From a virus (taxonomy: Duplodnaviria > Heunggongvirae > Uroviricota > Caudoviricetes): DNA of 9,709 bases. The stretch lies in the IMG/VR virus record IMGVR_UViG_2671181064_000002. One strand, given 5' to 3'. Position 1 is the stretch's first letter. Every line of letters starts with the position of its first letter. The notes under the pieces are model-generated. The model saw only the letters and a list, made by a program, of their open reading frames with translations, did not search any database and was not told the origin of the DNA. Of this stretch, positions 3,811-9,709 are shown piece by piece. Both the position numbers and the translations under genes were made by a program.

Positions 3811-3887
3811 GGCCCTTTAGCTCAGTTGGTCAGAGCGAGCGACTCATAATCGCCAGGTCGCTGGTTCAAGTCCAGCAAGGGCCACCA
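3811..3887 (+). tRNA. tRNA, anticodon CAU; probably tRNA-Ile2 (lysidine, reads AUA), tRNA-Met not excluded
   Basis: Cloverleaf folded by hand: acceptor GGCCCTT/AAGGGCC, D-stem GCTC/GAGC, anticodon loop CTCATAA, T-arm GCTGG-TTCAAGT-CCAGC, encoded CCA. Closely resembles my recollection of E. coli tRNA-Ile2. Confidence 0.85.
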
Positions 3888-3888
3888 A

Positions 3889-3965
3889 CCACCACTAGCT
3901 CATCCGGATAGAGCATCAACCTTCTAAGTTGACGGTGCGAGGTTCGAGTCCTCGGTGGTGGGCCA
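3889..3965 (+). tRNA. tRNA-Arg (anticodon UCU, reads AGA)
   Basis: Acceptor CCACCAC/GTGGTGG (unusual C1-G72 pair), D-stem GCTC/GAGC, anticodon stem TCAAC/GTTGA with loop CTTCTAA, T-arm CGAGG-TTCGAGT-CCTCG, encoded CCA. Confidence 0.8.
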
Positions 3966-3967
3966 GC

Positions 3968-4043
<76 letters not shown>

Positions 4044-4046
4044 TAT

Positions 4047-4121
<75 letters not shown>

Positions 4122-4262: not shown

Positions 4263-4482
4263 NNNNNNNNNNNNNNNNNNNNNNNNNNNNNNNNNNNNNN
4301 NNNNNNNNNNNNNNNNNNNNNNNNNNNNNNNNNNNNNNNNNNNNNNNNNNNNNNNNNNNNNNNNNNNNNNNNNNNNNNNNNNNNNNNNNNNNNNNNNNNN
4401 NNNNNNNNNNNNNNNNNNNNNNNNNNNNNNNNNNNNNNNNNNNNNNNNNNNNNNNNNNNNNNNNNNNNNNNNNNNNNNNNNN
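4263..4482. other. Assembly gap (220 N)
   Basis: Uninterrupted run of n. True length and content are unknown. Every six-frame ORF crossing it is an artefact. Confidence 1.
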
Positions 4483-4584
4483 ATTGGTGTGCTGGGAAGT
4501 CTGCTTCTGGGGCTTCTGACTTATCTGACAAATCTGTATTTCAAAATAAGAGAAGACAAGCGTAAGGCTGCGAGAGGTGAATAA
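4483..4584 (+). CDS. Holin, 3' fragment (S21-like pinholin C-terminus); 5' end lost in the gap
   Basis: Translation [33 protein letters not shown] matches my recollection of phage 21 / DLP12 EssD-type holin C-termini. Stop TAA 4582-4584 overlaps the endolysin ATG. Confidence 0.7.
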
Positions 4585-5081
4585 TGTCGCCATCATTACG
4601 CAAGGCTGTTGCAGCTGCTATTGGTGGTGGGGCTGTTGCTATAGCATCTGTGTTAATCACTGGCCCAGGTGGTAACGATGGTCTGGAAGGTGTCAGCTAC
4701 ATACCATACAAAGATATCATTGGTGTATGGACTGTATGTCACGGACACACCGGAAAAGACATCATGCTCGGTAAAACGTATACCGAAGCAGAATGCAAAG
4801 CCCTCCTGAATAAAGACCTTGCCACTGTCGCCAGACAAATTAACCCGTACATCAAAGTCGATATACCGGAAACAACGCGCGGCGCTCTTTACTCGTTCGT
4901 TTACAACGTGGGCGCTGGCAATTTCAGAACATCGACGCTTCTTCGCAAAATAAACCAGGGCGATATCAAAGGCGCATGTGACCAGCTACGTCGCTGGACA
5001 TATGCTGGCGGTAAGCAATGGAAAGGGCTGATGACCCGTCGTGAGATTGAGCGTGAAGTCTGTTTGTGGGGGCAGCAATGA
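4584..5081 (+). CDS. SAR endolysin (signal-anchor-release lysozyme, R21 / T4-lysozyme-like)
   Basis: N-terminal Gly/Ala-rich weakly hydrophobic segment [20 protein letters not shown] typical of a SAR domain; catalytic E-x8-D-x5-T pattern in [17 protein letters not shown]. Lies directly after the holin. Confidence 0.9.
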
Positions 5082-5542
5082 GCAGAGTCACCGCGATTAT
5101 CTCCGCTCTGGTTATCTGCATCATCGTCCGCCTGTCATGGGCTGTTAATCATTACCGTGATAACGCCATTACCTACAAAGAGCAGCGCGACAAAAACGCA
5201 AGAGAACTGAAGCTGGCGAACGCAACCATTACTGACATGCAGCAGAGACAGCGTGATGTTAATGCACTCGATGCTAAATACACGAAGGAGTTAGCTGATG
5301 CGAAAGCTGAAAATGAAACTCTGCGCGCTGATGTTGCCGCTGGTCGTCGTCGGTTGCACATCAAAGCAGTCTGTCAGTCAGTGCGTGAAGCCACCACCGC
5401 CTCCGGCGTGGATAATGCAACCAGCCCCCGACTGGCAGACACCGCTGAACGGGATTATTTCACCCTCAGAGAGCGGCTGATGACGATGCAGATGCAACTG
5501 GAAGGGGCACAGGAGTATATCCGCACTCAGTGCATTAAGTAG
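5078..5542 (+). CDS. Rz: Rz-like inner-membrane spanin
   Basis: ATG 5078 overlaps the endolysin stop (ATGA). N-terminal TM segment [14 protein letters not shown] followed by a charged coiled-coil periplasmic domain. Position after the endolysin and the embedded Rz1 frame support the call. Confidence 0.8.
5298..5480 (+). CDS. Rz1: Rz1-like outer-membrane lipoprotein spanin, embedded in the +1 frame of Rz
   Basis: AAGGAG (5285-5290) 7 nt before ATG 5298. Signal peptide with lipobox-like LVVVGC, then a proline-rich mature peptide (KPPPPPAW...PAPDW), about 41 aa. Confidence 0.75.
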
Positions 5543-5584
5543 CCTTTTTATCGTGGTAAACATTTCGCAGGGTATGAGGTATTT

Positions 5585-5935
5585 ATGCCATCACTAATCC
5601 CACGTGCCTGCCGTAAGCGTGGATGTGCAGGTACAACCACAGACAGTTCGGGTTACTGCGATAAACATCGCGGTGAAGGCTGGGTGCAGCACCAGCGCGG
5701 ACTGAGCCGCCACCAGCGTGGCTATGGCTCAAAATGGACGGTGATTCGTGCCCGTATTCTGAAGCGCGATAAAGGTCTGTGTCAGTTGTGTCTGCGTGTC
5801 GGTGTGGTGAGCGAGGCGAAAACCGTCGACCACATCATCCCGAAAGCGCATGGCGGAACAGACGCAGACAGCAACCTGCAGAGTCTGTGCTGGCCCTGCC
5901 ATAAAGCGAAAACAGCGCGCGAACGAATCCGGTGA
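5585..5935 (+). CDS. HNH endonuclease (packaging-associated, HK97 gp74-like)
   Basis: HNH motif CQLC...DHIIPKAHGGTDADSNLQSLCWPCHKAKT. GAGG at 5576-5579 precedes ATG 5585. Sits directly upstream of the terminase genes. Confidence 0.9.
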   Translation: MPSLIPRACRKRGCAGTTTDSSGYCDKHRGEGWVQHQRGLSRHQRGYGSKWTVIRARILKRDKGLCQLCLRVGVVSEAKTVDHIIPKAHGGTDADSNLQSLCWPCHKAKTARERIR

Positions 5936-5957
5936 TAATTATTCTCACTTGTAGGGA

Positions 5958-6017
5958 GGGGCGGGGCAAATCCCTGTGACCTGACGTCTTCCGGACTGCC
6001 CGCCCCATCGTTTTTTT
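5958..6017 (+). other. GC-rich imperfect hairpin followed by a T7 run; candidate terminator and/or cos-associated element
   Basis: Arms GGGGCGGGGCA (5958-5968) and TGCCCGCCCC (5997-6006) pair over 10 bp with a one-nt bulge and a 28-nt loop; TTTTTTT at 6011-6017. Located in the HNH-to-TerS intergenic region. Confidence 0.4.
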
Positions 6018-6056
6018 ATACCCGCGAAAAATGAAATTTAACCAGGAGTGCCGCAT

Positions 6057-6551
6057 ATGGCTGGAACGGCGGGGCGTTCCGGGCGTCGCCCCAAGCCAAC
6101 GGCGCGCAAGGCGCTGGCCGGAAACCCCGGCAAGCGAGCCCTGAACAAAGATGAACCTGTTTTTACGCCCATCAAAGGTGTTGAGCCACCAGAGTGGTTC
6201 GCTGAAGAAGATCTCCCTCTCGCCACGATCATGTGGCAACTGACAACCAAAGAACTCTGCGGTCAGGGCCTGCTGTGCGTGACTGACCTGGCGGTACTTG
6301 AGCGGTGGTGCGTGGCCTATGAGTTCTGGCGACGTGCCGTGAAAAATATTGCCATACAGGGCAACACCATCACCGGTGCAATGGGCGGCAGGGTCAAAAA
6401 TCCGGAGCTGACCGCCAAAAAAGAACAGGAGTCCGAGATGAGCAGCACGGGGGCAATGCTCGGACTCGACCCCAGCAGCCGCCAGCGTCTGATTGGCCTG
6501 GCGGGGCAGAAGAAAGCCACTAACCCGTTTCTGAAAATTATCGAATCATGA
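6057..6551 (+). CDS. terS: Terminase small subunit, P27 family
   Basis: N-terminal [29 protein letters not shown] is characteristic of the P27 family. AGGAG (6044-6048) lies 8 nt before ATG 6057. Stop overlaps the terL start (ATGA). Confidence 0.85.
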
Positions 6552-8281
6552 GCCGGAAATCTTACCCCAACGTAAATGCTGCAAATCAGTATGCCCGGGA
6601 TGTCGTGCGCGGAAAGATTGTTGCCTGCCAGTTTGTGATTCAGGCCTGCCAGCGCCATCTTGATGACCTGATGGCGGAAAAAAGTAAGTCGTTTCGTTAC
6701 CGCTTCGACAAGGACCTGGCTGAACGGGCCGCGAAATTTATTCAGCTGTTGCCGCACACCAAGGGGGAGTGGGCATTCAAACGGATGCCCATCACGCTGG
6801 AGCCGTGGCAGCTATTTGTGATCTGCTGTGCGTTTGGCTGGGTCAATAAAGGCACCCGGTTGCGCCGCTTCCGGGAGGTGTACACCGAAATCCCCCGTAA
6901 GAACGGCAAATCAGCAATCTCTGCCGGTGTTGCCCTGTATTGTTTTGCCTGTGATAACGAGTTTGGCGCGGAAGTGTATTCCGGTGCCACGACAGAGAAA
7001 CAGGCGTGGGAAGTCTTTCGCCCGGCGCGACTGATGTGTAAACGCACACCCATGCTGACGGAAGCGTTCGGGATTGAGGTTAACGCCTCAAACATGAACC
7101 GTCCGGAGGATGGCGCGCGGTTTGAACCGCTGATCGGCAACCCAGGTGATGGTTCATCACCCCACTGTGCCGTGGTTGATGAATATCACGAGCATGCCAC
7201 CGATGCGCTTTATACCACAATGCTTACCGGGATGGGGGCGCGACGTCAGCCACTGATGTGGGCCATCACCACCGCCGGGTACAACATTGAGGGGCCGTGC
7301 TACGACAAGCGGCGGGAAGTCATCGAGATGCTCAACGGCTCGGTGCCTAACGATGAACTGTTCGGGATCATCTATACCGTTGATGAAGGTGACGACTGGA
7401 CCGGCCCGCAGGTGCTGGAAAAAGCCAATCCAAATATTGGCGTGTCGGTTTATCGCGAATTTTTGTTAAGTCAGCAGCAGCGTGCGAAAAATAACGCCCG
7501 TCTGGCAAACGTCTTTAAAACAAAACACCTCAATATCTGGGTGTCGGCGCGTTCGGCGTATTTCAACTTGGTGAGCTGGCAGAGCTGCGAGGATAAATCA
7601 CTGACCCTTGAGCAGTTCGAGGGGCAGCCGTGCATTCTGGCCTTTGACCTGGCGCGTAAGCTGGATATGAACAGCATGGCGCGACTTTATACCCGCGAGA
7701 TTGACGGTAAAACGCATTACTACAGTGTGGCCCCGCGTTTCTGGGTACCGTATGACACGGTGTACAGCGTCGAGAAAAATGAAGATCGACGGACAGCCGA
7801 ACGCTTTCAGAAATGGGTGGAAATGGGCGTTCTGACCGTTACCGATGGTGCGGAGGTGGATTATCGCTACATCCTCGAGGAGGCCAAAGCGGCGAACAAA
7901 ATCAGCCCGGTCAGTGAGTCACCCATCGACCCCTTCGGGGCGACCGGGTTGTCACATGACCTTGCTGATGAAGACCTGAATCCCGTCACTATCGTCCAGA
8001 ACTTCACCAATATGTCCGATCCGATGAAAGAGCTGGAAGCAGCGATTGAATCGGGACGTTTTCATCATGACGGCAATCCCATCATGACCTGGTGTATCGG
8101 CAACGTGGTCGGCAAAAACATGCCGGGTAACGATGATGTGGTGAAACCCGTCAAAGAGCAGGCGGAAAACAAAATCGATGGTGCAGTTGCGCTGATTATG
8201 GCGGTTGGCAGAGCCATGCTGTACGAGAAAGAAGACACGCTGTCTGACCACATTGAGTCCTACGGGATCCGCTCGCTTTAA
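6548..8281 (+). CDS. terL: Terminase large subunit (ATPase/nuclease, HK97-like Terminase_1 type)
   Basis: 577-aa ORF with Walker A-like PRKNGKS and Walker B-like AVVDEYHE; translationally coupled to terS. Confidence 0.95.
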
Positions 8282-8292
8282 CTGAGGTAATT

Positions 8293-8475
8293 ATGATCAT
8301 GCTGATTCTCGCGCCTCTGGTGGGCGTGCTGGGTGCGCTTTTGCTGGCGTATGGTGCCTGGCTGATTTATCCCCCGGCGGGTTTTGTTGTTGCCGGGGCG
8401 CTGTGCCTGTTCTGGTCGTGGCTGGTGGCGCGATATCTCGACCGTACACGGCAGTCTGTCGGCGGAGGTAAATAG
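8293..8475 (+). CDS. Hypothetical small membrane protein (60 aa, two predicted TM helices)
   Basis: GAGGT (8284-8288) before ATG 8293. Two hydrophobic stretches ([23 protein letters not shown] and [19 protein letters not shown]). Stop TAG 8473-8475 overlaps the candidate portal start GTG 8475. Confidence 0.5.
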
Positions 8476-9631
8476 TGTTCTTTTCGGGATTATTTCAACG
8501 AAAAAGCGATGTGCCGGTGACCACGCCAGCAGAACTGCTGATGCTATCGGGCTGTCATACGACACCTATACCGGAAAGCGGATCAGTAGCCAGCGGGCCA
8601 TGCGCCTGACGGCGGTCTATTCTTGCGTCAGGGTGCTGGCAGAGTCTGTTGGTATGCTGCCCTGCAGTCTCTACAAAATCAGCGGTACCCTGAAAACACG
8701 GGCGGTGGATGAACGACTGCATAAGTTGGTTTCGGCAAAACCTAATGGCTACATGACACCGCAGGAATTCTGGGAGCTGGTTATTGTCTGCCTGTGTCTA
8801 CGGGGGAATTTTTACGCCTACAAGGTAAAGGCACTGGGAGAAGTGGTGGAGCTTCTTCCGATAGATCCGGGCTGTGTGGAACCGAAGCTGAACAGCCAGT
8901 GGCAGCCGGTTTATCAGGTGACGTTTCCGGATGGTTCCGTGGATGTGTTGACCCAGAATGAAATCTGGCATGTGCGCACCCTGACGCTGGATGGACTTGT
9001 CGGGCTGAATCCCATTGCGTATGCGCGTGAGGCCATTTCACTGGCAGCGGCAACCGAGGAGCACGGTGCCAGGTTGTTTAGTAATGGTGCGGTGACATCC
9101 GGTGTGTTGCGTACGGAACAAAAGCTCACGCCGGATGCTTACGAGCGTCTGAAGAAAGATTTTGAGGAGTGTCACACGGGGCTTGGCAATGCTCACCGCC
9201 CGATGATTCTGGAAATGGGGCTGGACTGGAAGTCGATGGCGCTGAACGCCGAGGACAGTCAGTTCCTGGAAACCCGCAAGTTTCAGCTGGAAGAAATCTG
9301 TCGTCTGTTCCGGGTGCCGTTGCACATGGTGCAGAACACCGATCGCGCCACCTTCAACAATATCGAAGAGCTGGGGCTGGGATTTATCAACTATTCACTG
9401 GTGCCGTATCTGACCCGCATCGAACAGCGGATCAACACCGGACTGGTACGAAAAAGTAAGCAGGGCGTTTATTACGCCAAATTTAACGCCGGGGCGTTAC
9501 TGCGCGGGGATATGAAGTCCCGTTTTGAAGCCTACGCCACCGGGATCAACTGGGGAATTTACTCTTCCAATGACTGCCGCGACCTGGAAGATATGAATCC
9601 GCGTCCCGGTGGTGTAATGCCGATCAGTTAA
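8475..9631 (+). CDS. Portal protein, HK97 family; apparent frameshift near the 5' end (possible pseudogene or sequence error)
   Basis: Main body is the frame-2 ORF 8384-9631 with portal-like sequence (TGKRISSQRAMRLTAVYSCVRVLAE...). The best start, GTG 8475 with GGAGG 6 nt upstream, opens frame 0 ([26 protein letters not shown]...), which stops at 8607-8609. The two frames are both open only across 8475-8606. Confidence 0.8.
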
Positions 9632-9663
9632 GGATCAGTTGACCGATCCAGTGGCTGTGTAAG

Positions 9664-9699
9664 AATCCGGAAACGCTCACTTGTTTCCGGATTTTTTTA
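9664..9699 (+). terminator. Strong intrinsic terminator immediately downstream of the portal gene
   Basis: Perfect 10-bp stem ATCCGGAAAC (9665-9674) / GTTTCCGGAT (9683-9692), 8-nt loop, then a T-run to 9698. Confidence 0.7.
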
Positions 9700-9709
9700 T
9701 GCACATTGG

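Follow-up and report, generated by a model that had tools for sequence, protein, structure and literature searches.

The window, a stretch of 9,709 nucleotides (nt), almost certainly carries part of a degraded prophage of the phiP27/SfIV/e14 type in Shigella sonnei, and in it the portal gene is a pseudogene with two independent lesions. One is a single-base deletion at positions 8536/8537, and the other is an insertion of IS4 after position 9614, by which the last 33 portal codons (381-413) were replaced. Both lesions are present in the DNA and are common to all the S. sonnei-type sequences examined, as expected for a mutation fixed in the ancestor of a young clone.

The loci used for comparison were chosen by an exact lookup of the large terminase protein (6548-8281), which is listed in 4305 assembly-collection blocks. 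Ten loci were fetched. Three are independent draft contigs and seven are complete chromosomes, one of which is S. sonnei Ss046 (CP000038.1, Yang et al. 2005; PMC5447701). On both sides of the run of N in the window, the identity with these loci is 99.96-100%, except for L008 (98.5%), whose differences fall in the lysis cassette.

The two frames of the portal gene and the single-base deletion

The portal gene is preceded by a ymfR-like gene for a 60-aa membrane protein, taken from the list of open reading frames (ORFs; 8293-8475, plus strand). The gene in the same position is annotated as 'protein YmfR' or 'membrane protein' in E. coli A36, phiP27 and the e14 element of E. coli K-12. Its stop codon, TAG at 8473-8475, overlaps the GTG codon at 8475 by 1 nt (the shared G). 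A ribosome-binding site GGAGG, read from the sequence at 8464-8468 (plus strand), lies 6 nt before this GTG and is invariant in the alignment with phiP27, A36 and SfIV, and the equivalent start is annotated in phiP27, SfIV, A36 and the K-12 gene beeE. A 95-codon ORF on the minus strand (8278-8565) runs antisense to the ymfR-like gene and the portal 5' end; it is called in none of the related loci, and nothing marks it as a gene.

The frame opened by GTG 8475 has 44 codons (MFFSGLFQRKSDVPVTTPAELLMLSGCHTTPIPESGSVASGPCA) and closes with the TGA at 8607-8609. Its first 21 residues (8475-8537, plus strand) are identical to residues 1-21 of the phiP27 portal at 20 of 21 positions (BLASTP, E = 1e-12), and on this protein match they represent the authentic 5' end of the portal gene, codons 1-21, in its original frame. 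When the 44-aa peptide is aligned with the phiP27 portal by BLASTP, the match extends no further than residue 21, and a Pfam search with the peptide gave no match. The rest of this ORF, the out-of-frame tail LMLSGCHTTPIPESGSVASGPCA with the TGA that follows it (8538-8609, plus strand), arose through the deletion and is no conserved peptide.

The body of the portal is encoded in another frame, in a long ORF that spans 8384-9631. The part from 8537 to 9614 (plus strand) corresponds to residues 22-380 of the 413-aa phiP27-type portal; when the frame is read from 8537, 350 of 359 residues (97%) are identical to those of phiP27. Gene callers start this ORF at ATG 8600, which gives 343 aa, or further upstream (L004-L013). 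The 343-aa product matches the Pfam family Phage_portal (PF04860) with 359.8 bits (cut-off 39.1; E = 1.7e-107) over profile positions 2-321 of 321, and for comparison the phiP27 portal scores 364.8 bits against the same family. The remnant is thus without 41 N-terminal and 33 C-terminal residues, and the whole Pfam portal domain is kept. By its sequence the gene is an HK97-type portal of the phiP27/SfIV/ST64B/e14 group, as a pseudogene and not a functional member: in place of an uninterrupted frame of ~413 codons, there is one that is broken at 8537 and truncated at 9614.

Residues 1-21 in the original frame and 22-380 in the shifted frame abut, and no residue is missing at the join. Such a two-frame match to the phiP27 portal lies far beyond chance. 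The four-way DNA alignment of the window with phiP27, E. coli A36 and SfIV has a single gap column, and the gap is in the window (relatives GA[G]CTGGC, window GAACT-GC). At this 1-bp deletion site (8536-8537, plus strand) the codons CTG GCT (Leu-Ala) are reduced to CTGCT at 8535-8539. Two related loci, L014 and the metagenomic L021, carry the intact allele GAACTGGCTGATGCT with exactly the flanking bases of the window; therefore CTG GCT is the ancestral state, and one G of the GG pair was lost. The ancestral GAA CTG GCT GAT has become GAACTGCTGAT in the window, with the downstream codons displaced by -1. When one G is inserted after 8536, a single open frame extends from 8475 to 9631, and the repaired N-terminus is that of SfIV, L021 and BeeE of the K-12 element e14, except for V13 in the window. 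The site itself is a GG dinucleotide, with no long homopolymer.

An earlier reading of the window, made from the sequence alone (the sequence-only reading), had proposed the GTG 8475 start with its GGAGG 6 nt upstream and its 1-nt overlap, a portal-like N-terminus in frame 0 ending at a stop at 8607-8609, and a conserved portal body in the other frame. All of these were confirmed: the start on the sequence, the stop as a TGA after 44 codons, the N-terminus by its match to phiP27 residues 1-21, and the body by PF04860 and phiP27 residues 22-380. That reading had also reconciled the two frames by a single-base deletion or a 2-base insertion, probably within about 8541-8570. The deletion stands, as the alignment gap, but the interval does not, as aligning both frames to portal homologues placed the shift a few bases further 5', at 8536/8537.

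The IS4 insertion and the fate of the head and tail genes

At the 3' end of the gene, homology with phage portals stops at 9614. The match to IS4 is at 100% from about 9610 (query position 1331), and positions 9615-9709 (plus strand), beginning TAATGCCGATCAGTTAAGG, are the left end of IS4, with a 100% match to annotated IS4 (InsG transposase). The 12 bp before it, GTCCCGGTGGTG (9603-9614, plus strand), are the left copy of the IS4 target sequence, which recurs after the right IS4 end in L020. There, the junction reads GGCATTA joined to GTCCCGGTGGTGATGTC, with the 12-bp GTCCCGGTGGTG followed by the missing portal 3' end (ATGTCTATCTCACACCGATG...). In SfIV this 12-bp sequence is present once, and its occurrence at both junctions is the target-site duplication of one insertion event. 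The IS4 junction is marked by the k-mer GTCCCGGTGGTGTAATGCC, and the right-hand junction by GGCATTAGTCCCGGTGGTGATG.

IS4 is 1426 bp long and has terminal inverted repeats of ~18 bp, a DDE transposase and a target duplication of 11-13 bp. The element at the portal gene agrees in length, inverted repeats, transposase and target duplication: its complete copy in L007 (9068-10493) has 1426 bp, matches at 16/18 positions in the terminal inverted repeats and encodes a 442-aa transposase with Nterm_IS4 and DDE_Tnp_1 domains. In the window, the end of IS4 supplies the codons VMPIS and the stop at 9629-9631, and the hairpin with a T-run at about 9661-9699 also belongs to it. What looks like a natural stop with a terminator hairpin is, on this match, the end of IS4 and not phage sequence. 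This second lesion is absent from the sequence-only reading.

Upstream of the portal gene, the HNH, TerS, TerL and ymfR-like context is present, as for phiP27-type portals. To the right of IS4, the complete genomes have chromosomal genes and no prohead protease or capsid genes; therefore, the morphogenesis module was deleted or moved by an IS-mediated rearrangement. Downstream of IS4 in L004-L010 (locus coordinates about 10200-13700), bamE and recN come next in five loci and raiA-pheL-pheA-tyrA in two. In Ss046 at least, IS4 itself carries an IS3-family element, about 1.33 kb in size. The varying right flank suggests that the locus has undergone an inversion or a deletion mediated by IS elements.

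L020 (2790-4260), an IMG/VR scaffold, is the only locus in which the genes for protease, capsid and tail proteins adjoin the right IS4 junction. One half of this scaffold is a portal-plus-protease stretch without IS4, which is joined through an N, with the hairpin loop of IS4 in an inverted copy, to IS4 bases 69-1426; after IS4 come the portal 3' end, the protease and capsid genes and an ORF of 1081 aa, probably the tape-measure protein. Thus at least one genome still keeps the head and tail module at the right IS4 junction; L020 as a scaffold may be chimeric. L020 was considered as evidence for the order of the lesions, as the only locus to combine the deletion with an uninterrupted 3' end, and was rejected on account of its N joint, the inverted IS4 loop there and halves that possibly come from two copies. 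Dating the deletion by L008, L015 and L017 was also rejected, given that these loci vary only in the lysis cassette (about 4600-5510) and show no change across TerS, TerL and the portal gene.

Distribution of the deletion and competing explanations

The deleted allele (k-mer GAACTGCTGATGC) is present in 10/10 terminase-identical loci and the intact allele (k-mer GAACTGGCTGATGC) in 0/10. Six IMG/VR contigs also have the deleted allele, which brings the total to 16/16 related S. sonnei-type loci. The exact 343-aa product from ATG 8600 occurs on at least 1000 contigs, and a 336-aa partial product, cut at the contig end, on at least 1000 further contigs; every name among the listed cluster members of these two products is Shigella sonnei. 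A megablast search of 5426 complete E. coli genomes, apparently without Shigella, gave no match above about 94% over the portal gene, and found the intact comparators. Exact-pattern scans of genome_contigs for the deleted allele, and for either G or GG at the site, returned nothing and are uninformative on allele frequency; our guess is that S. sonnei is perhaps absent from the species representatives behind that scan.

On these matches the window comes from S. sonnei, and the deletion is a real and fixed feature of the chromosome, because the same allele is found in all loci, the GG pair is not a homopolymer and the run of N (4263-4482) lies ~4 kb away. The sequence-only reading had weighed an assembly or sequencing error, with the nearby N gap as a ground for suspicion, against a real inactivating mutation in a cryptic prophage. 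The 16/16 loci show the latter to be right, no observation contradicts a real deletion, and the N gap is unrelated to the site. An error, with a G that the genome itself has and that the sequencing chemistry or the assembler left out, is a practically negligible explanation. It could draw on the window being a scaffolded draft, with 220 N standing for 653 bp in complete genomes, and on one private base difference in the window, at 5129. However, the 2005 reference Ss046 and six further complete chromosomes, three other draft contigs and the six IMG/VR contigs would all have to share one identical error, at a GG pair that is no homopolymer run and lies 4 kb from the N gap, and the ORF that the deletion creates is the one carried by at least 1000 contigs.

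The two frames might still be joined in expression, by a programmed -1 ribosomal frameshift or by transcriptional slippage, so that the full N-terminus is made. The shift needed is indeed -1 (CTG at 8535-8537 is read, and G 8537 is re-read in GCT), and the authentic start and its Shine-Dalgarno sequence are intact. Yet there is no X XXY YYZ heptamer in 8475-8609, where the junction is GAACTGCTG; a homopolymer scan gave TTTT at 8481 and AAAAA at 8501 as the only runs, both far from the junction; and the minimum free energy of 8538-8630 (93 nt) is -29.2 kcal/mol, where shuffled sequences average -28.8 (z = -0.12), so that the stretch folds no better than they do. The intact relatives all have one frame, and the two-frame layout is confined to S. 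sonnei-type sequences; therefore this arrangement is a derived mutation, and there is no conserved recoding site. In addition, IS4 interrupts the gene, and the locus has lost its capsid genes. With 0/3 of the marks of a programmed -1 frameshift found (heptamer, downstream structure, conserved layout), we regard recoding as scarcely credible. Slightly less remote, and still highly improbable, is a true start within the shifted frame, for example at ATG 8600, with the frame-0 peptide being a coincidence and no frameshift having occurred. A 343-aa 'portal protein' is annotated from this ATG in most S. sonnei assemblies, and the product holds the full Pfam domain. In every intact homologue, however, the start corresponds to GTG 8475 and follows the same GGAGG, and a single frame encodes the 41 residues that precede the Met of ATG 8600; in the window, residues 1-21 are conserved in frame 0 and residues 22-41 in the shifted frame. 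For the ancestral gene, a start at ATG 8600 is thereby refuted. By eye, no good Shine-Dalgarno sequence precedes ATG 8600. Intact portals that start at the equivalent of ATG 8600, named by the sequence-only reading as the observation that would speak against a frameshift, number 0 among phiP27, SfIV, E. coli A36, K-12 BeeE and L021, and all five begin with the frame-0 peptide joined directly to A[DE]AIGLSYD.

The explanation that we favor is the loss of the gene by the two lesions. One lesion is the loss of a G of the GG pair at 8536/8537, and ribosomes starting at GTG 8475 would translate 21 correct and 23 wrong codons before stopping at the TGA at 8607. The other is IS4, inserted after 9614 with a 12-bp duplication, which removes the last 33 codons and parts the portal gene from the genes for prohead protease, capsid and tail that lie downstream of it in intact relatives. 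No full-length portal would be made, and the changes would represent neutral decay in a prophage unable to build particles. We infer the functional death of the locus; against it stands that the 343-aa ORF still has the whole Pfam portal domain and might be translated to some degree. The remnant translated from ATG 8600 could conceivably serve as a dominant-negative portal subunit in superinfection exclusion, a very unlikely role; if true, it would poison the head assembly of superinfecting SfIV/SfII/phiP27-like phages. This idea could draw on the intact domain and on the universal retention of the remnant in S. sonnei, and a young clone would explain the retention equally well. Because S. sonnei is so clonal, the agreement among its assemblies is uninformative on selection for or against the remnant; outside the lysis cassette, the window does not vary between strains.

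The remaining prophage genes, known relatives and meaning for annotation

As to whether other prophage genes are also disrupted, a check raised by the sequence-only reading, the remaining phage genes of the window look intact and are identical across strains. They encode a DnaB-type helicase, RusA, a Q antiterminator, an ORF6N-domain protein, lysozyme, Rz, Rz1, an HNH endonuclease, TerS, TerL (577 aa, as in SfIV) and the ymfR-like protein. Within the window, the damage is limited to the portal gene and to whatever ought to lie downstream of it. The 220-N run is a nominal scaffold gap; the 653 bp found there in complete genomes (L010, 3283-3935) are mostly non-coding and include the start of the holin gene. 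Four tRNA genes (Met-CAT, Arg-TCT, Thr-TGT and Gly-TCC) are located at 3811-4121, between the ORF6N-domain gene and the lysis cassette, a place where lambdoid and Stx-type phages carry tRNAs.

The lysozyme/Rz cassette (about 4600-5510) is the sole variable part among the S. sonnei-type assemblies, with 15-77 differences in L008, L015 and L017, which suggests recombination or assembly mixing with other lambdoid lysis cassettes in the same genome. Across 4483-9709 the window departs from Ss046 at a single base, 5129, where the other related loci also disagree with it. The C in the window makes residue 22 of the Rz-like spanin Arg, and the T in the others makes it Cys; the difference is either a SNP of this strain or a wrong base call. 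A 60-codon ORF with a lipoprotein-like signal (…LVVVGC…) lies out of frame at 5298-5480, inside the Rz-like gene (5066-5542); an embedded out-of-frame ORF is the usual Rz/Rz1 spanin arrangement.

The order of HNH, TerS, TerL, 60-aa membrane protein and portal genes is shared with phiP27 (Stx2e phage; portal NP_543090.1, L38), SfIV, SfII, SfI and Salmonella phage ST64B, and the phages of the phiP27 group have the same GTG start, 1-nt overlap and GGAGG. In this stretch, the nucleotide identity to the window is 93.7% for phiP27, 93.6% for E. coli A36 and 88.7% for SfIV (megablast). The portals of these three are intact, with 413 codons, and in the phiP27 group the genes for the prohead protease and the major capsid protein come after the portal gene; in the window copy, by contrast, a G is missing at codon 21/22 and IS4 has taken the place of codons 381-413. 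Among described genes, the closest analogue is the beeE (b1151) portal fragment of e14 in E. coli K-12. The ymfR-portal junction has the same 1-nt overlap, the BeeE N-terminus equals the repaired window sequence apart from A13/V13, and both are decayed portal genes in defective prophages of one family. However, BeeE stays in the original frame over about 135 residues before its sequence diverges from that of the SfIV portal, whereas the 1-bp deletion at codon 21/22 and IS4 close to the 3' end break the S. sonnei copy, in which the whole central domain is retained.

Frameshifts, IS disruption and IS-mediated rearrangement are a documented mode of genome decay in Shigella (PMC8072062 and works cited there), and PHASTER-type analyses already list phiP27-like prophage regions in S. 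sonnei (PMC5447701). The case described here is of an ordinary, already known kind, one more example of decay by frameshift and IS in Shigella prophages, and it poses no new question. Regarding annotation, it means that a doubly disrupted pseudogene is often deposited as a 343-aa or 414-aa 'portal protein' in S. sonnei genomes. The 1-bp deletion and the IS4 junction (…GTCCCGGTGGTG joined to TAATGCC…) are fixed markers of the S. sonnei prophage remnant, and prophage-prediction tools should not rate the region as packaging-competent.
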